This document shows, piece after piece, positions 46,691 to 54,778 of a stretch of DNA of 64,000 bases; positions within the stretch are counted from its first letter, which is position 1; each line of letters opens with the position of its first letter. The notes beneath the pieces are model-generated. The model searched no databases and had not been told where the DNA came from. It worked only from the letters and a program-made list of their open reading frames with translations. Made by a program: the position numbers and the translations under genes. The stretch is from Pirellulales bacterium (lineage in GTDB: Bacteria; Planctomycetota; Planctomycetia; Pirellulales; PALSA-1355): positions 96,001 through 160,000 of the forward strand of contig CAVTBU010000009.1 of assembly GCA_963733035.1 (NCBI GenBank), read 5' to 3'.

Positions 46691-47858
46691 CTAGAGCACT
46701 CGGCCAAGCCCGTCGACCAACTGGTCGATCATGGACCGCGTGTGCGTGGCAAAAACGGCGACGCGCAGCATACCATCGGGCCCTGCGCCTGCATAGTTGC
46801 GGGTGTAGGCGATGGCGATACCAGCCGCGAGCAACTGCTGCTGAACGCGCTGCATGTCGGCGGCATTTTCGAGGCGGAAGCTAATGATGGGTGTCGGCCA
46901 GGGTTCAATCTCCAAGCCAAGGTCTCGCAAGGCGTCGCGCGCGTATTTGGCATTGTCCGCTAACTGCGACCTTAGGGCCGGCTCGGTCTGTATGATCTCC
47001 AGCGCCCTGGCCGTTGCGGCGGCGACGGGAGCGGCCGGCGCGCTTGCGCCGCGAAACCAGCCACTCGACTGGCGCACGTCGCTCAGGAATTCGCGCGTGC
47101 CGACGATCGCGCCGCCCTGACCGCCGACGGCTTTGCTCAGCGTCGTGGTGTGGTAGACGGCCGTGCGCTCGACTGCCGGCGCAGACGCGTTAATTCGCTG
47201 CGGCGCGACGCCCGCCAGTTCCAAGCTGCCGCGACCGCCGCTGCCGAGGACGGCCATGCCATGCGCATCATCCACGAGCAACATGGCACCCTGATAGGCA
47301 TCGAGGATCGATAGATAGTCGCCAAGCGGCGCCAACCGGCCACTAGCGGCGAATACACCGTCGGTCATCACCAGCGGGCGCTGGCCTGGGTGCAGTTCGT
47401 GGCGCAAGCAATTCCGACATGTGCTGGGGATCGCGATGCCGAAACGCCAGCGGTGGACGGCTTAGCTCGGTCAGCCAATGCGTAGCCTCGCGCAGACAAT
47501 CGTGTGCCGACTCATCGATGAGTACCAGATCCACGAACTTGCTGAGCGCCGCTGCCAGGGCAAAATTCACGGCGTAGCCACTGACCAGGTAGCAGCACTC
47601 CTCGGCACCGAGAAACGTTGCCGTGCGCCGCTCGACTTCGAGAACTGGGGGACTAGTTCCATAGCCGCTGCGCGTGGTGGCCGTATGAATGCCGTACTTG
47701 ACACACGCCTGTTCGGCCGCCGCGATGACGGCCGGATGGCCTTGCAATGCCAGGTAGCCGGTGCCGGCGAAATACAAACATTCGCGGCCGCTCAACCATG
47801 CGTGCGTTGCCGGCGCCGATTCCATCAGGGGGAAATCATCTGAGGCCGGACGGGACAT
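46691..47858 (-). CDS. Class I/II PLP aminotransferase (8-amino-7-oxononanoate synthase-like), frameshifted near 47405
   Basis: N-half: FAGTGYLAL, SGYAVN, DESAH, FRHRD. C-half: TDGVF, VDDAHG, TLSKAVG (PLP Lys), LRVAV. Confidence 0.83.
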
Positions 47859-47974
47859 GGTCTGCTGCTGGCGAAGGACCGAATGTTGCTGCGGCCACGA
47901 TTTTAGCCCGGAATGAGACCTGGATAGTCTCAAATGATCCCCCGAGGCCGGAATTAATCAGGGATGGGAGGGTA

Positions 47975-48142: not shown

Positions 48143-48571
48143 ATGAAGAACATTCTGATTCCCTGTGCCGCGTTGGCGCTGGTCTGTGGTCTGATTTCCG
48201 TGTCGACGGCGGGCGAACCCGCTGCCATTTCCGACTCAACGCTCGGCAGCATGGGCTTGGGCGGCATGCAGAAGATGTCGGATACCGATGGCCTTTTGGT
48301 CCGTGGTAAGGGCTACACCGGCTACGGCGGTGGCACCTCGGCCTCCGTTTGGGGCGGGAGCAGCGCCAACTGGTACGGTGGCCAGTCGTCGAACAACAAC
48401 TATGAAGCCAGCTCGTCGTGGTTGGGCCACGGCTCGTCGGCCACGGGTGGCAGCCTGAGCTTCGCCGGCAAGATCCAGGGCAGTTACGCGGCCGACCCGA
48501 CCGGTTCGGCTCTGTCGCTCACGATTTGCGGTGGTTTCGCCGGTGGCGGGGCCTTCGCGATTGCTCATTAA
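48143..48571 (+). CDS. Small secreted Gly/Ser-rich protein A (candidate fibre/amyloid or peptide precursor)
   Basis: Sec signal (..VSTA), pro-motif LGSMGLGGMQKMSDTDGLLVRGKG, G/S/N/W-rich core; paralog of the next two ORFs. Confidence 0.85.
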   Translation: MKNILIPCAALALVCGLISVSTAGEPAAISDSTLGSMGLGGMQKMSDTDGLLVRGKGYTGYGGGTSASVWGGSSANWYGGQSSNNNYEASSSWLGHGSSATGGSLSFAGKIQGSYAADPTGSALSLTICGGFAGGGAFAIAH

Positions 48572-48606
48572 CCCAGTCTCGGTCCCAACGCCGACCTCAC
48601 TCTTCG

Positions 48607-48646
48607 AAGACCTGGTTGCCCCCCGCTCGGCAGCCAGGTCTTTTTT
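48607..48646 (+). terminator. Rho-independent terminator after gene A
   Basis: AAGACCTGGTTGCC-ccccgctc-GGCAGCCAGGTCTT followed by TTTT. Confidence 0.85.
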
Positions 48647-48769
48647 AATTGGATTTGCCAAAAACATGCGGGCTTGGGGAACATTTGGACGCTGAAACGC
48701 CGGTTTTTGGCAGCGAGCAGGTGCTGTTGGAGAACTAGTGAAGATAGTAGGAATATACCGATCACCCTG

Positions 48770-48823
48770 TTGACAATGGTTTTAGCGGCAATTAGTCTGC
48801 TACTCGATTGGTCGCTGCGCAGC
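48770..48823 (+). promoter_or_regulatory. Sigma70-like promoter plus GCTGCGCAGC palindrome upstream of small protein B
   Basis: TTGACA(48770)-N17-TAGTCT(48793); palindrome at 48814-48823. Confidence 0.55.
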
Positions 48824-48959
48824 ATCAATCCGGTTTGACAGTCGAGGCCAGCAGGCCGCTGTTGAACGCGTTTTCCCTCATTTTGCCAGGCGCATGCCAG
48901 CCATGTCGCCACCTTCGGGGGATGTCTAGCTACGGTGATTCCACTTTCATGAGGACACA

Positions 48960-49355
48960 ATGATGAAGCACGTTGCAATTGCTTGTGCGGCAGTGATGTT
49001 GTTTGCTGCCACGGCGACGGCTGCCGAGCCGGTTGCCAAGTCGACCCTCAGCAGCATGGGCCTGGGCGGGATGCAGCAGATGTCGGACAACGACGGTCTG
49101 GCTGTCCGCGGTAAGGGTACGTTCGCCCACGTATGGGGCGGAAGCCAGGCGAATTGGTACGGCGGTCAGTCGTCGACCAACAACTACAATGCAGGCGCCC
49201 AGTGGCTCGGCAAGAGCTCGACCGCCGTTGGCGGTAGCTTGAGCTTTGCTGGCAAGCTGCAGGTCAGCGGTGCCGCCGATCCGACCGGCTTCGCCATCCA
49301 AGGCCAATTGGGTGTTGGCTTCGCCGGTGGTGCGGCGTTCGCCAAGGCTTGGTAA
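48960..49355 (+). CDS. Small secreted Gly/Ser-rich protein B
   Basis: GAGGA RBS; Sec signal (..ATATA); LSSMGLGGMQQMSDNDGLAVRGKG; core collinear with A. Confidence 0.87.
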   Translation: MMKHVAIACAAVMLFAATATAAEPVAKSTLSSMGLGGMQQMSDNDGLAVRGKGTFAHVWGGSQANWYGGQSSTNNYNAGAQWLGKSSTAVGGSLSFAGKLQVSGAADPTGFAIQGQLGVGFAGGAAFAKAW

Positions 49356-49404
49356 CAAGCGGAATCGCTTGCTCATTGCGGCAAGTGCTCCCGTCTTTGC
49401 ACAA

Positions 49405-49451
49405 GCTGGCCCTGTCGTCGAATAGTCGGTGACAGGGCCAGCCCCTTTTTT
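49405..49451 (+). terminator. Rho-independent terminator between genes B and C
   Basis: GCTGGCCCTGTCGTCGA-atag-TCGGTGACAGGGCCAGC ccc TTTTTT. Confidence 0.8.
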
Positions 49452-49464
49452 CAGCGAGGCCTCG

Positions 49465-49794
49465 ATGACAAAGATCTTCGTGTTAACGATCGCCCTGGTG
49501 ATTTCGTGCAGTGCAATTGCGGTGGCGGCCGATCAAGCCGTCTCCGCCGCGACGCTGGGAGCGATGGGCATCGGCCAGATGCAACCGCTGTCGGACGAAG
49601 ATGGCCTGGCCGTACGCGGTAAAGGCACTTTCGCCAACGTCTGGGGTTTTAGCCAGGCGAGGTGGGGCGGCCAATCGTCGTCGAACAACTACTCGGCCGG
49701 TTCCAGCTGGTTGGGACAGAGTTCTTCGGCATTGGGAGGAAGCCTAAGCTTTGGTGGGAAGGCGCAACTCGGCTTTGGTCATTTCGGTTGGTAA
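49465..49794 (+). CDS. Small secreted Gly/Ser-rich protein C (short paralog)
   Basis: GAGG then ATG 49465; Sec signal (..AIAVA); LGAMGIGQMQPLSDEDGLAVRGKG; lacks the C-terminal AADPTG segment of A and B. Confidence 0.83.
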   Translation: MTKIFVLTIALVISCSAIAVAADQAVSAATLGAMGIGQMQPLSDEDGLAVRGKGTFANVWGFSQARWGGQSSSNNYSAGSSWLGQSSSALGGSLSFGGKAQLGFGHFGW

Positions 49795-49822: not shown

Positions 49823-49865
49823 CGGGCCCTGTCCACCTGTAAAGTTGGACAGGGCCCGTTTTTTT
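49823..49865 (+). terminator. Rho-independent terminator after gene C
   Basis: CGGGCCCTGTCCA-cctgtaaagt-TGGACAGGGCCCG followed by TTTTTTT. Confidence 0.85.
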
Positions 49866-49882: not shown

Positions 49883-51070
49883 CTAGTACATGATACCCGC
49901 ACCGATCGTCAGGCCCACGAGTTGGAACAATATGTCGCCAGCCTGAGTGGTGGCAAAGCTCGAAGCGGTTCCGCTGTTGGCGACCGACAGTGCTCCCGCG
50001 GCCACTCCGGCATTCGCGTCCCAGTATTGCCACTCGATGCCCGTGCGAAAGAACGCTCGGCCGGGAAGGCACCGCAAGCACGCATCCCATTGCAGTCCGG
50101 CACCGAGTTCCATGATGAACATGTCGCCGTTGCCCTTGGCCAGGGCGCCGTCGGTCGACTCAAAAAACCCGGAACCGTTGGCCGCTTGCGTGTTGGTTTG
50201 CGCGGTGGCAACGCCGTTGCCCCACAAGATCGAGTAGCGGTTGGTGAAATAGGCTTTGAGAGCCCCATCGTCGCAGAACAGCGGCCGCAGCCCCCACACT
50301 CCGAATGTCAAGCCGGCCCCGTTGAACTGCTGGCCGGCGTACGACATCGACTGCACGAGGTCGCTGCCAAACGTGTTCTGTGTCCATAAGCTGCGGTCGT
50401 TGTTTACCGAGGCGTACCGCGCTCCCAGGAATCCGTACATGTCCCAATTGTGCCAGCAGAAGCGGCGCTGCACCTCCAGGTCGACAGTATAGATGTTGAA
50501 CGTGTCGAACAGGATGACGCCACTCTGCACGGCGTCGGGGATTGCCGGAATAAAACCGTTTGCCGACGTCCCGGAGTTCCAGTAGCGGCCAACCAGCCCC
50601 CAGCACTCACCCATCACACCCATGGTGACTCGAGGCCCGACAAGGAGCCCACCTTCGACCGAACCGAGTGCCGAGTTGTTCACAATCGACACGTCGCCGA
50701 GGCTGTTCGAAAAACCATTGTTGAGAAAGTTGCGACTGATTTGCGGCCAAAAGAAGGTCGCCTCGATGCCCACGACGAACTGGCAACGCGGGCCGCAGCC
50801 GCCCGTGTAGCAAGTCGTGCACTGCCCTGGAAGCGGAGCCACGGCGCTTTGTGCTTCGGGCGTTTCAACCGGCTCCTGGGCATCCCAGCGGCTGGTAGGC
50901 ACTTGCGCCGGAGCGGGTGTCGCCGGCTGCACGGTTTGTTGCGCGGAAACCTGTTGGATGAGAGGCGGACGGAACACCGGTTCGGTGAAATCGTCGCCAT
51001 GAGCTGAGCCGGCGGCGGCACATCCAATCGCCGCGATCAGCGAGCAGAACCATTTTCGAGTTGTCTTCAT
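49883..51070 (-). CDS. Putative outer-membrane beta-barrel protein (planctomycete Lpg1974/BBP7-like)
   Basis: GAGGAG RBS; signal peptide; Pro/Gln-rich linker; Cys cluster CTTCYTGGCGPRC; amphipathic strands (GIEATFF, DLEVQRR, GARYASV, ELGAGLQW, TGIEWQYW); C-terminal GLTIGAGIMY. Confidence 0.72.
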   Translation of the reverse strand: MKTTRKWFCSLIAAIGCAAAGSAHGDDFTEPVFRPPLIQQVSAQQTVQPATPAPAQVPTSRWDAQEPVETPEAQSAVAPLPGQCTTCYTGGCGPRCQFVVGIEATFFWPQISRNFLNNGFSNSLGDVSIVNNSALGSVEGGLLVGPRVTMGVMGECWGLVGRYWNSGTSANGFIPAIPDAVQSGVILFDTFNIYTVDLEVQRRFCWHNWDMYGFLGARYASVNNDRSLWTQNTFGSDLVQSMSYAGQQFNGAGLTFGVWGLRPLFCDDGALKAYFTNRYSILWGNGVATAQTNTQAANGSGFFESTDGALAKGNGDMFIMELGAGLQWDACLRCLPGRAFFRTGIEWQYWDANAGVAAGALSVANSGTASSFATTQAGDILFQLVGLTIGAGIMY

Positions 51071-51377
51071 CTCCTCACCCCTCCTGGGAGAGCTGGTTGC
51101 CACGGCGGGCATCGCCAGCGAATGCGAACCGTATTTGTCTAATGTTCAGAACGCGCTTGGGTCGTCCACCGCTTCGAACGCCTCGGCCGGTCTTACCCCA
51201 TCCGACTTTGACGTTCGATCCCCGCGGCAAACCGCGAACCGGTGCAATGGCGCGAGGCGCCACCGCACTTTTCGTTGCACGTATCATCGTCCGCATGATC
51301 GGACGAATTGATGCCTCATGTCTTCGGCGGATCAACACTTACAACCGATACGCCCAGAATATGCGTTACGGCTGACG

Positions 51378-51747: not shown

Positions 51748-53097
51748 ATGGATGAACCGCACGGGATCTCGGGACGACGCCTCCCGCAGCGATCCGCGCG
51801 ACGAGTCTTCGCCGCAGGGCTACTAGTTCTGTGCGCGCTCAACGTGGCCCCGGCCCAGGGCGACGAGCCGGAGGGTCCCCGCGCCCTTTCGGCCGTCGCA
51901 ACAACACCCGCGGCACAGCCAATTTCGCTGCCGCCGAGGTCACACCGCCTGCCGCCGGTCGAAGCGTCAACGACGTCCGGGTTTGCGAGCTACGCCGCCG
52001 GCCAATCGGCGCCACTGTTCGCCGACCCGTACGACGGCCAGCAGGTCAACTACATAACCGCGGCACCCGGCGGGCCGGCGGCTTCGACGTCAAATCCGCT
52101 CACGGCCCTGACTCCCGGTCAGCCATTGATTCGTTTTTCGGGCATGCAAGATCCAGACGCTCCGCGTCCGCCGGCCGAGAAGAACGCGGATTCCGCCGCC
52201 GAAGGCGGCCCAGATACGGAAGCTGGCGAGGGGGCCGAACAAACCTACGGACAAGCGCCGACCAACAACTCGCTGCAGTTTCTGCGCGACGTCGACGTCT
52301 TGCTCGCGCCTGGCAAGTGGCAGTTCGATACCGGCTTCGTCTACACGCACTTCTCCAATAACTTTCCCGTCGCCCTCATCAACGGTGGAGGAGACGTGGT
52401 GGGCGTGGAACAAGGCGAGGTACGGCGCCGGTTGCTCTACACTCCGCTGGCCTATCGCTACGGCATAACGAACAACATTCAGTTCTTCTCCTTCATGCCA
52501 GTCGGGTTTTCCAACACGCAGTTCTCGTCGCTCAACACCAGCGAAACCACGAACGTCAGCGGTTTGGGCGATCTGACGGCCGGCGTGAGCATCCACCTGA
52601 TCAAAGGAGAAGACCAGATGCCGGACGTGATCGGCACGGTCGGCTTCACGGCGCCGACCGGAAAGTTTTCGACGCCGATCTTTGGTCTTGTGCCGGGATC
52701 CAATCTGGGCCAGGGATACTGGGCCTACAACGCGCAATTGCTGTTCATTAACCGTTACGACCCGGTGATCGTGTTTTACGGAGGTGGTTACCGGCACTTG
52801 TGGGAGCGCAGCTTCAACGGTCAGCTGATCGCGCCAGGCGAACAAGTGAACTACATGCTTGGCGTCGGCTTCGCCGTCAACGATCGCGTTACACTGAGTT
52901 CCACGTTCCAGGGCTACTACATTACAAATACGTTCATCAACGGCTCGAACCTTCGCGGCTCGAACCTGGAGCCGTTGAGCATGCGATTCGCTGCAACGAT
53001 CGTGCGAAACTGCCGAATTATCGAACCATTCGTGCAATTAGGGGCGACGAATTCCGCCCCGCGGGTCAACGTAGGCGTGGTCGTAACGTTCTACTAG
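51748..53097 (+). CDS. Outer-membrane beta-barrel transporter (FapF/SphA/MetA-pathway-like)
   Basis: Signal peptide (..APAQG); long P/A-rich periplasmic arm; then LLAPGKWQFDTGFVY, YRYGIT, SGLGDL.AG, TAPTG, GQGYW, YDPVIVFYGGGY and GVGFAVND; aromatic C-terminus TFY; adjacent to a C39 peptidase. Confidence 0.75.
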   Translation: MDEPHGISGRRLPQRSARRVFAAGLLVLCALNVAPAQGDEPEGPRALSAVATTPAAQPISLPPRSHRLPPVEASTTSGFASYAAGQSAPLFADPYDGQQVNYITAAPGGPAASTSNPLTALTPGQPLIRFSGMQDPDAPRPPAEKNADSAAEGGPDTEAGEGAEQTYGQAPTNNSLQFLRDVDVLLAPGKWQFDTGFVYTHFSNNFPVALINGGGDVVGVEQGEVRRRLLYTPLAYRYGITNNIQFFSFMPVGFSNTQFSSLNTSETTNVSGLGDLTAGVSIHLIKGEDQMPDVIGTVGFTAPTGKFSTPIFGLVPGSNLGQGYWAYNAQLLFINRYDPVIVFYGGGYRHLWERSFNGQLIAPGEQVNYMLGVGFAVNDRVTLSSTFQGYYITNTFINGSNLRGSNLEPLSMRFAATIVRNCRIIEPFVQLGATNSAPRVNVGVVVTFY

Positions 53098-53153: not shown

Positions 53154-53921
53154 ATGGCCGCACAATTCGCTCATCGCTGGGTCTGGCACCCACGAAACAT
53201 CCGCAACACTTGTCTGGCGTGGCTGGTGGCGTGTTTCCTGTCCGCATTGGCGGCTCCGGCTTGCGCTCAATTCAACCAATACACGCGGGCTCCTATCCGA
53301 AACCCAGATCGAATCATTCGCGAATACGTTTGGAGCTACAAGGAACTGCGCAAGCGCCAGGTGGTAATGCAGAAGCTCGACTACTCATGCGGCGCCGCGT
53401 CGCTGGCAACGATCTGCCGTTACTATTGGGGCGATAATATCACGGAGGAGACTTTTCTGCGGCTGATTCCGAAGCTGAAGCTCACCGCCGCACAAATCAA
53501 GGATCGCATTGAGAACGGACTCACGCTGACCGATCTGCGCGACATGGCCAACCTGGCGGGTTACCAGTCGTCGATGGGGAAAGTGAAGTTCTCGGAACTG
53601 GCCGAGGCCAAAGTGCCGGTAATTGTCGGTATCACGGTGCGCAAGCACGATCACTTTGCCGTCTTTCGCGGCACCGACGGCTATTACGTCTATCTGGCCG
53701 ACCCCATTCGCGGCAATATCCGCGTGGTGGCCGACACGTTTGTGCGGGAATGGCAACAGAATGCGATCCTGGTCGTCGCCAAGCCCGGCGCGAAGGTAAA
53801 GGAGGTCAATCCGATGGGCGTGCGGTTCCCGGAAATCTTCCGTGGGCTGCTGAACGACCAGACGGTGAACCGCAACTGGACAATGAGCACGGTTCCCAAC
53901 CCGGTCCGCATCGGACAGTAG
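53154..53921 (+). CDS. Stand-alone C39 family cysteine peptidase with signal peptide (FapD-like)
   Basis: GGGAG RBS; signal ..LSALAAPACA; QKLDYSCGAASLATI (Gln/Cys), HDHFAVFRG (His), YLADPIRG (Asp); no ABC or TM domain. Confidence 0.88.
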   Translation: MAAQFAHRWVWHPRNIRNTCLAWLVACFLSALAAPACAQFNQYTRAPIRNPDRIIREYVWSYKELRKRQVVMQKLDYSCGAASLATICRYYWGDNITEETFLRLIPKLKLTAAQIKDRIENGLTLTDLRDMANLAGYQSSMGKVKFSELAEAKVPVIVGITVRKHDHFAVFRGTDGYYVYLADPIRGNIRVVADTFVREWQQNAILVVAKPGAKVKEVNPMGVRFPEIFRGLLNDQTVNRNWTMSTVPNPVRIGQ

Positions 53922-54079
53922 GTCAATTGCCCGCCCGGCGACGGGCTTCCGGCAAGGACATCCGTGGAACGACGTCGCGACGCTTGCGGCAATTTGGCCA
54001 CAAACGCGGGATGCAATTTCTTGACCAGCGAGCTACGATTGAGCAGCGGCGGGGTCGCCAGGGTCGTAAAGGAAATCCC

Positions 54080-54778
54080 ATGTCCGAGATGTCCGAGCCA
54101 AGTTCGTCGGAATACCACGGTGAGCGCCTGGAGTTCTTAACGGTTCTGGGGCTGGCTCCGCCGGTTACCGAGGAGGACGTCAAGCAGGCATACCTCGTCA
54201 AAGCCCGCACCGCGCACCCGGACCAGGGAGGAGACGTCGAGCAGTTCAAGCGGCTTCAAGAAGCGTTCGAGCAGGCTACGGAGTACGCCCGTTTCAAGTC
54301 GAGCCGCATGCAATGGCTCAGCCGGTGGGTCGAGCAATATGCCGAGCAAGACAAGTTCATCGAGCGCATCAAAGGCCTGGGGGGGCACGTCGAGGTGAAG
54401 GCCTCGGACCCGATGACCCGCTCGATCGGGCCCGACTTTGCCGTCGTGCTCGACAAGCTGACGGGCATCTCGCTGGAAGGTCCTAACATCGACGACGCCA
54501 CGATGGCGGAACTCGTGAGCCAGAAGCGGATGCTCGCCGGCCTGCACAAACTAGCACTCCTCGATACGTCCGTCACCTACGTTGGTCTTCTCAAAGTTCG
54601 AGAGTTGCAAAACCTTCGCGAGTTGGATTTGAGCGGCACGGAAGTCGACCCCGCCACGCTTGAGCCAGTGCTGCGAGAACTGCGCTCGCTCGAAGTGCTG
54701 AAACTCGACCGGACCGGCATTGGCTGGCCGGCACGGGTGAAGTTGCGAGTGCGGTATCGCAACTTGACGATCTCCTAG
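54080..54778 (+). CDS. J-domain (DnaJ) plus leucine-rich-repeat protein
   Basis: VLGL....TEEDVKQAY...AHPDQGG..EQFKRLQEAFE (HPD motif); C-terminal LRR units LHKLAL, LRELDLSGT and LEVLKLDRT. Confidence 0.8.
   Translation: MSEMSEPSSSEYHGERLEFLTVLGLAPPVTEEDVKQAYLVKARTAHPDQGGDVEQFKRLQEAFEQATEYARFKSSRMQWLSRWVEQYAEQDKFIERIKGLGGHVEVKASDPMTRSIGPDFAVVLDKLTGISLEGPNIDDATMAELVSQKRMLAGLHKLALLDTSVTYVGLLKVRELQNLRELDLSGTEVDPATLEPVLRELRSLEVLKLDRTGIGWPARVKLRVRYRNLTIS

Follow-up and report, generated by a model that had tools for sequence, protein, structure and literature searches.

The DNA analysed here, referred to as the window, is a stretch of 64,000 nucleotides from a Pirellulales bacterium (GenBank assembly GCA_963733035.1, contig CAVTBU010000009.1, positions 96,001 to 160,000 of the forward strand), with a G+C content of about 60%. 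It carries three tandem genes for small secreted proteins, which we call A, B and C, followed by two putative outer-membrane barrels and a stand-alone cysteine peptidase of the C39 family (Table 1). In A, B and C the signal peptide is followed by a shared block of ~32 residues, hereafter the leader, which is better conserved than any other part of a large Pirellulales family and is portable across at least 39 unrelated core types. Sequence comparisons and structure predictions indicate that this second tag behind the export signal is very probably recognised by the adjacent exported peptidase, which likely also cuts it off.

Translation of the three genes gives one architecture, a Sec-type signal, the ~32-residue block and then a low-complexity core rich in G, S, N and A as well as aromatic residues, and the proteins are 55–65% identical overall. 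Across A, B and C the block has the consensus TLxSMGLGxMQxMSDxDGLxVRGKG, and its motif starts 5–9 residues past an AxA-type signal-peptidase site (STA/G, ATA/A and AVA/A; a slash marks the cleaved bond). The strings that the first-pass annotation had quoted as a shared motif after the Sec signal are all exact, at residues 32–57 of A, 28–53 of B and 29–54 of C, the last counted from ATG 49465. That codon was taken as the start of C because the sequence collection contains exactly the 109-residue form (P0082), the open reading frame (ORF) from GTG 49429 representing an unlikely 12-residue extension. The same annotation had placed the start of the core directly after RGKG, which is correct for B and C, while in A a seven-residue insert, YTGYGGG, comes first; it had also described the pro-segment as acidic and as keeping the core soluble, a role left unsupported by a net charge, from the signal site to RGK, of only about 0 in B, −1 in A and −2 in C. 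Each of the three genes has its own terminator-like site, which suggests that the subunit genes are separate units. On the whole proteins, no useful Pfam or NCBIfam family was found at E ≤ 0.1, and leader-only fragments, scanned against Pfam alone, had no match at E ≤ 10; a DUF4179 match (E 0.056) was rejected, as it sits on the signal peptide.

Table 1. Features of the locus, with positions counted from the first base of the window.
Feature	Position	Strand	Remarks
Aminotransferase ORF	46691..47407	-	matches Aminotran_1_2 positions 143-360
Aminotransferase ORF	47343..47933	-	N-terminal part, weak match
Substrate A	48143..48571	+	142 aa; G/S/N-rich core behind leader and 7-residue insert
A, signal peptide	48143..48211		residues 1-23
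A, leader	48212..48313		residues 24-57, end ...LLVRGKG
Terminator-like site after A	48606..48643	+	hairpin and T-run
Substrate B	48960..49355	+	131 aa; core from residue 53
B, signal peptide	48960..49022		residues 1-21
B, leader	49023..49118		residues 22-53, end ...LAVRGKG
Terminator-like site after B	49405..49442		similar to that after A
Substrate C	49465..49794	+	109 aa; core shorter than in A and B
C, signal peptide	49465..49527		residues 1-21
C, leader	49528..49626		residues 22-54
Terminator-like site after C	49836..49853		similar to that after A
Outer-membrane beta-barrel candidate	49883..51112	-	409 aa; signal peptide, Pro/Gln linker, Cys-rich stretch, C-terminal aromatic
FapF/FilC-like outer-membrane barrel	51748..53097	+	449 aa; presumed export channel
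Stand-alone C39 cysteine peptidase (P0247)	53154..53921	+	255 aa; signal/anchor residues 1-38 (...ACA/Q)
DnaJ (J-domain) and leucine-rich-repeat protein	53750..54778	+	directly after peptidase

The block extends well beyond this locus. A word-indexed search with B returned 102 relatives, every one of them without a name or called 'hypothetical' and derived from Pirellulales-type sources, and a profile of A, B and C matched 532 proteins at E ≤ 1e-3 and 78 at E ≤ 1e-10, counting one representative per 50% cluster; many of the 532 align only at profile positions 1–60, which correspond to the signal and the block. The anchor hydrophobic-S/T-D-x-x-G-x-x-V/I-R-G is present in 235 of 246 family sequences, and the 11 without it include fragments and one 1897-residue protein that matches in the core only. 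The regular expression for this anchor fixes R-G, hence the invariance of the pair rests instead on a MAFFT alignment of 106 diverse members, in which G34, R50, G51 and the signal-site residue A21 are invariant (B numbering), L30, D43 and G46 are conserved in at least 90% of sequences, and the closing R-G-K-G has its K in 68% and its second G in 86%. Information content is 3.5–4.3 bits at L30, M33–L35, S42–D43, G46, V49–G51 and G53, and past G53 it is at most 2 bits, with the exception of G60.

Grouping of the 233 cores that have at least 30 residues past the anchor gave 39 BLAST components, one with the 180 cores of the A/B/C type and 38 with the remaining 53 cores, which are Pro-, Cys-, His- or Gly/Phe-rich. 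Insertions and deletions fall exactly at the leader/core junction, which reads VRG-TFA in one family of genomes, VRGKG-TFA in B and VRGKG-YTGYGGG-TSA in A. Foreign cores also adjoin the peptidase, at locus L011 (10730–11041), where the leader ORF has a 37-residue Phe/Pro-rich tail, and at locus L019 (7583–7975), where it has a Lys/Val/Asp repeat (...VKVKADVKVKARV...). Since one conserved block is carried by many unrelated cores, it behaves as a modular leader or address tag and not as part of one fold, and judging from these sequences the same leader appears to act as the pathway's address tag for many unrelated low-complexity cores in Pirellulales.

In an AlphaFold2 (AF2) model of B, a helix at residues 43–50 is followed by G51–K52 and then, from residue 53, by four long strands of 13–18 residues each (predicted local distance difference test, pLDDT, 84–92 in the core), the leader forming two short helices outside the beta core (pLDDT 62–73). 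As modelled, such strand-rich cores resemble a beta-barrel fragment or a stacking unit; a Foldseek comparison of the B model with PDB folds gave no match at E ≤ 0.001. Many cores of the family, P0204, P0205, P0217, P0228 and P0236 among them, end in a strand of alternating small and hydrophobic residues, the last residue being aromatic or basic (...AFAKAW, ...AFAIAH, ...FAFAK, ...AFAR).

The peptidase matches Pfam C39 (PF03412) with 61.9 bits against a cut-off of 22, over residues 186–327 of the long ORF; its best NCBIfam match is FapD (E 4.8e-23, 81.6 bits, cut-off 330), and it also matches FilB (E 2.8e-20, 72.8 bits, cut-off 475). It has no fused ATP-binding cassette (ABC) exporter, its relatives are 184–346 residues long, and the full-length sequences displayed in the alignment have signal-like N-termini, with a basic and then a hydrophobic stretch. 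The catalytic set, Q73 (oxyanion), C79, H167 and D183, is invariant in all 58 aligned relatives. The AF2 model has a pLDDT of 83, rising above 90 over residues 70–220, and its best Foldseek matches are PCAT1, the ComA PEP domain and LahT150 with leader (6mpz), at E 1e-9 to 1e-8 and target-normalised TM-scores of 0.76–0.83. From its sequence, the peptidase looks active and periplasm-facing. Past the catalytic domain it has a conserved C-terminal tail (residues ~212–240, KVKxxNPMGxRxxExxRGxLNDQTVRRN) that holds an R-G of its own, with E227 and Q236 at least 90% conserved and high model confidence as far as about residue 230; it may serve in channel docking or autoregulation. The idea that this tail (...NPMGVRFPEIFRG...) mimics the leader was dropped, as the spacing from the acidic residue to R-G differs.

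Leader and peptidase occur together. In a sample of 251 genomes drawn evenly from the class, the leader profile matches 17 and the peptidase, at E ≤ 1e-10, 16, all of which are among the 17; the other 234 have neither. The positive genomes are spread over six families (f1–f5 and f15) and make up, for example, two of four in genus g2 and five of seven in g4. In all 16 genomes with the peptidase the nearest leader ORF lies 0.16–5.5 kb from it, and in eight the distance is less than 0.4 kb. The one discordant genome (G089) has a leader match at E 5.7e-4 only, which a hidden Markov model (HMM) of 29 leader positions does not recover. This HMM found a leader ORF in each of 15 fetched peptidase loci, where tblastn also identified a FapF-like gene in 15 of 15 and the 409-residue barrel in 14 of 15 (it is missing from L019, the G020 locus). 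The full module is also present in four of five further loci from metagenome-assembled genomes (Pirellulales, Rubripirellula), which were found with the three-paralogue alignment of A, B and C. The genome to which the window belongs has one FapD-like C39 gene and three leader genes, 3.4 kb apart, and a whole-genome search found A, B and C as its only leader genes.

Prediction of a complex between peptidase residues 39–214 (57-row alignment) and residues 22–66 of B (106-row alignment) gave interaction scores from aligned errors (ipSAE) of 0.83, 0.75 and 0.82 (median 0.82), compared with 0.00 for the best of three controls. At least 85% of contacts are common to the runs, and the partner pLDDT is at least 71; 116 of 157 solved complexes and 2 of 215 mismatched pairs attain the score mark, a calibration that is only rough here, as custom alignments were used. 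On the peptidase side the interface comprises residues 73, 76–80, 165–168 and 184–185, which form the catalytic neighbourhood, and on the substrate side B residues 22–54, of which 43–54 are laid over the catalytic residues; among the least-error contacts, V49 of B touches five peptidase residues (124, 125, 159, 201 and 204). A model of this kind and a motif HMM searched near C39 genes were among the checks that the first-pass annotation had named for its proposal, and they returned the median of 0.82 against 0.00 and the leader ORF in 15 of 15 fetched peptidase loci, respectively. Binding of the leader to the peptidase is supported by the complex model together with the co-occurrence.

The Fap system of Pseudomonas consists of the periplasmic C39 peptidase FapD, the outer-membrane channel FapF and the fibre proteins FapB, FapC and FapE. 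The Pirellulales locus is similar in that the neighbours of a stand-alone, signal-bearing C39 peptidase are a barrel related to FapF and small G/S/N-rich proteins exported through Sec. According to the available sections of the 2017 Fap study (PMC5557850), FapD C38A abolishes FapC secretion, no peptides from the first ~70 residues of FapE were detected by mass spectrometry, and the FapD target is unclear, the Fap proteins being without canonical C39 sites. The available part of a 2018 review (PMC6173800) reports fapD–fapF pairs in five other phyla with unnamed cargo, and a 2026 preprint (10.64898/2026.10.01.755530), in its accessible text, mentions only 'precursor processing' and nothing on the substrate. 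The first-pass annotation had ascribed a DxxLxxLRG motif near the N-terminus to FapE; at three Fap-like loci of Proteobacteria, the protein that takes the place of FapE does bear such a stretch (...ELxxMRGG, ...VLARQRGG and ...LEESRGG), in two of the three behind a signal-like N-terminus. The Pirellulales module nevertheless differs from Fap: its FapD and FapF matches are far below the equivalog cut-offs (81.6 versus 330 and 35.8 versus 700 bits), no neighbour scanned against NCBIfam matches the FapA, FapB, FapC or FapE families, it has the extra 409-residue porin-like barrel, and its substrates form a distinct family that lacks annotation (A, B and C returned 0 NCBIfam and 0 meaningful Pfam families), all with a leader that ends in R-G-K-G and also serves many unrelated cores. 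The control genomes examined contained no Fap operon.

A similar picture emerges from comparison with the Fil system of Acinetobacter, a 'putative pilus' (filABCDEF; NF050077–NF050081 and NF033645). The peptidase matches FilB, FilC is likewise FapF-related, and a second barrel stands beside the FapF-like one, FilD in Fil and the 409-residue protein here. In A. baumannii FilA, the stretch ...MQSMDDAALSAATGQDG... directly after the signal peptide has a hydrophobic-x-D...L...G-x pattern similar to that of the leader. The second barrel here, however, is BBP7/Legionella_OMP-like (a lead only) and not FadL-like, the subunits have 109–142 residues compared with about 290 in Fil, and NCBIfam gave no FilA, FilC, FilD, FilE or FilF family match at this locus; a true Fil locus scores 333–786 bits on its own models, five of six lying above their cut-offs and FilD (726 versus 970) below. 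A phmmer search of A. baumannii FilA against PDB sequences returned nothing at E ≤ 0.01, and the family profile gave a signal-peptide match only. By family membership the locus is thus neither a Fap nor a Fil operon, but by analogy it would work like them. The literature on FapD/FapF in Planctomycetota, on periplasmic C39 and double-glycine processing and on FilA/FilB processing, as far as it could be searched, yielded no description of this leader and no account of how FilA is processed. Elsewhere, on a plasmid of Deinococcus sp. (L027, 5895–6452), a 'polymorphic toxin type 33 domain-containing' protein lies beside a stand-alone C39 peptidase and a small barrel and has ...LSDAELDEVKGE... far behind its signal peptide; a leader-like tag may also serve toxin delivery in the Deinococcus phylum.

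The double-glycine-type site proposed by the first-pass annotation is correct as to the peptidase fold and catalytic set, which are those of ComA, LahT and PCAT1, and as to the helix followed by an invariant Gly, but not as to the site, which is R-G-K-G and is matched by no leader model of Pfam or NCBIfam. Double-glycine leaders open a precursor that stays in the cytoplasm, whereas the one here lies behind a Sec signal; in addition, the peptidase is periplasm-facing and unfused to an ABC transporter, P1 would be Lys, and P7 is Gly instead of Leu. In profile searches, the leader has no detectable homologue among bacteriocin leaders or the proteobacterial motifs.

Double-glycine leaders follow the consensus LSxxELxxIxGG. 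Three registers of cleavage were compared, among which a cut after K52 (VRGK/G in B) is slightly favoured from alignment, with G51 and G53 as alternatives. In the K52 register, M41, S42, D45, V49 and G51 fall on P12, P11, P8, P4 and P2 of the consensus (five of seven positions), and R-G-x aligns with R-G-G of the FapE-position proteins from the Polymorphobacter, Croceicoccus and Cupriavidus Fap-like loci, as well as with G-K, G-R, G-Q and G-E ends in neighbours, Acinetobacter FilA and a Deinococcus protein. The G51 register (VRG/K) places the cut at R-G, the only invariant pair, right where conservation changes and the insertions and deletions occur, and the G53 register corresponds to the 'KG' site of the first-pass annotation.

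These observations suggest the following route. A, B and C would cross the inner membrane through Sec and lose their signal peptides, so that the ~32-residue leader, now N-terminal, could enter the substrate groove of the periplasm-facing C39 peptidase with its short helix, Gly-rich turn, helix D43–R50 and then G51–K52–G53. The peptidase would next cut at the invariant R-G, preferably after the following residue (VRGK/G in B), a bond favoured because of the alignment to double-glycine leaders and to the R-G-G sites of Fap-like proteins. Finally, by analogy with Fap and Fil, the freed beta-rich core of about 55–90 residues would leave through the FapF-like barrel and contribute to a surface structure. 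Sec first and periplasmic C39 second is the best reading of the data because of the co-occurrence and adjacency, the modular cores, the invariant catalytic residues, the signal on the peptidase and the complex model. We consider it probable, with moderate confidence, that a Fap/Fil-type module for outer-membrane export, comprising the C39 peptidase, the FapF-like barrel and the porin-like barrel, handles A, B and C as its substrates, and that the peptidase cuts the leader. The two-step maturation put forward by the first-pass annotation is likely, and finds support in so far as the leader is tied to the adjacent C39 peptidase; cleavage itself and the exact bond are still inferred. A wider proposal is more doubtful than this, though possible: FapD/FapF-type pairs might be a general two-step outer-membrane route that is not amyloid-specific, for which a periplasmic leader exposed after Sec export would be the ticket and its removal by C39 the licence; the Pirellulales leader (...MSDxDGxAVRG...) would send dozens of unrelated low-complexity cargos (Gly/Ser/Asn-, Pro-, Cys-, His- and Phe/Gly-rich) through one shared peptidase and channel, and the substrate of FapD/FilB would be the second leader of the cargo.

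Several observations weigh against cleavage of the leader by this peptidase, beginning with the fact that we infer the cut and do not observe it. Because the positive genomes are mutually related, they are less independent than the co-occurrence counts imply; a contig of 10 kb (L031) carries a leader gene without a peptidase, and two additional leader genes of genome G227 are located on separate contigs. In the complex model the catalytic Cys is absent from the least-error contacts, and the docking pass may be partly due to likeness to solved C39–leader complexes (6mpz, 6v9z), a likeness that is the very point at issue and yet no proof that this copy binds or cuts. The site is R-G-K-G and not Gly-Gly, and in the canonical register P1 would be Lys, Thr, Met or Gln, unlike the small P1 of known C39 substrates. 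At locus L018 the sequence is R-A-K in place of R-G-K, which fits a cut after RG/RA better, Gly to Ala being a classic P1 variation. No bacteriocin-leader model in Pfam or NCBIfam matches A, B or C, and the 29-position leader HMM, run against 1100 stop-to-stop ORFs from six Fap/Fil-like loci (Acinetobacter, Polymorphobacter, Cupriavidus, Croceicoccus, Deinococcus and Aeromonas), reached a best E of 0.87, with no motif-bearing ORF among its matches. The likeness of the leader to motifs in these six loci rests on reading by eye and on a regular expression written after the motifs had been seen, which matched three ORFs, all flanking the peptidase, and is a lead and not a statistic.

Conservation, modularity and co-occurrence would suit a retained tag equally well, and the block might accordingly be a targeting or docking segment that stays on the protein and binds the peptidase, acting as a chaperone-like receptor, or the FapF-like channel. 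Curli CsgA offers a parallel, as it keeps its N-terminal 22 residues on the mature protein. The true substrate would then lie elsewhere, for example in the disordered N-terminal region of the FapF-like barrel, which is indeed long and Pro/Ala-rich here, and the available sections of Rouse et al. 2017 (PMC5557850) name FapF as a possible FapD target and describe C39-like domains that only bind. We regard such a retained segment as unlikely: non-cleaving C39-like domains are without the catalytic Cys, yet the full Q/C/H/D set is invariant here, no other protein of the module has a shared conserved motif, the complex model threads B residues 43–54 past the catalytic residues and not along the distal groove alone, and the RG(KG) junction, at which the insertions and deletions gather, marks an abrupt end of conservation.

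More improbable still is that another protease, or the protein itself, cuts the block, or that it serves the subunit structurally, for example as the N-terminal strand or helix through which polymerisation occurs, with the peptidase carrying out an unrelated step such as channel opening. There is no Gly-Gly, the basic R-G-K would also be acceptable to trypsin-like periplasmic or surface proteases, and the Foldseek search with the substrate model gave no related fold from which the function of the N-terminus could be deduced; the gap between the peptidase–leader score and its controls, however, weighs against this reading, and a structural role in one fold is contrary to the presence of the leader on cores of unrelated composition and to its position outside the beta core in the monomer model. 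That the likeness of A, B and C reflects recent paralogy only, the motif having no function of its own, is barely credible in spite of their overall identity, since the block is the best conserved part across the 532 representative clusters, many of them matching over positions 1–60 only, and R50 and G51 never vary among 106 diverse sequences whose cores cannot be aligned. Recent paralogy is accordingly refuted by the profile matches, the 106-sequence alignment and the core-component analysis, and cleavage of the leader by the adjacent peptidase remains our preferred reading.

Among the neighbouring genes, the 409-residue barrel has no Pfam or NCBIfam match, and its protein-language-model features are near those of Legionella_OMP/BBP7-type porins (score 0.98; a lead only); its Cys-rich stretch after the Pro/Gln linker reads CTTCYTGGCGPRC. 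The 449-residue barrel comes close to PF13557 (Phenol_MetA_deg; 21.4 bits, cut-off 22) and weakly matches FapF (NF058560; E 3.8e-9, 35.8 bits, cut-off 700), and its gene is 57 bases from that of the peptidase. Only the closest relatives (G219 and three metagenome-assembled loci) retain the DnaJ–leucine-rich-repeat gene, which is probably outside the core module. Upstream of A, a class I/II aminotransferase appears to be split into two overlapping ORFs (46691–47933), which may reflect a frameshift or a sequencing error.

The leader described here is new and unusually portable for a Fap/Fil-type kind of system. The target of FapD-type periplasmic C39 peptidases is still called undetermined in the available parts of the 2017 study (PMC5557850) and the 2018 review (PMC6173800), and the locus supplies a testable substrate. 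It is a clean test case, with one peptidase, three adjacent substrates, an invariant R-G, docking above controls and a family large enough to show the portability of the tag. If cleavage is true, it would name the substrate class of FapD-type periplasmic C39 peptidases, provide a short tag for testing how proteins are directed across the outer membrane, and extend Fap/Fil-type export to Planctomycetota with new cargo.

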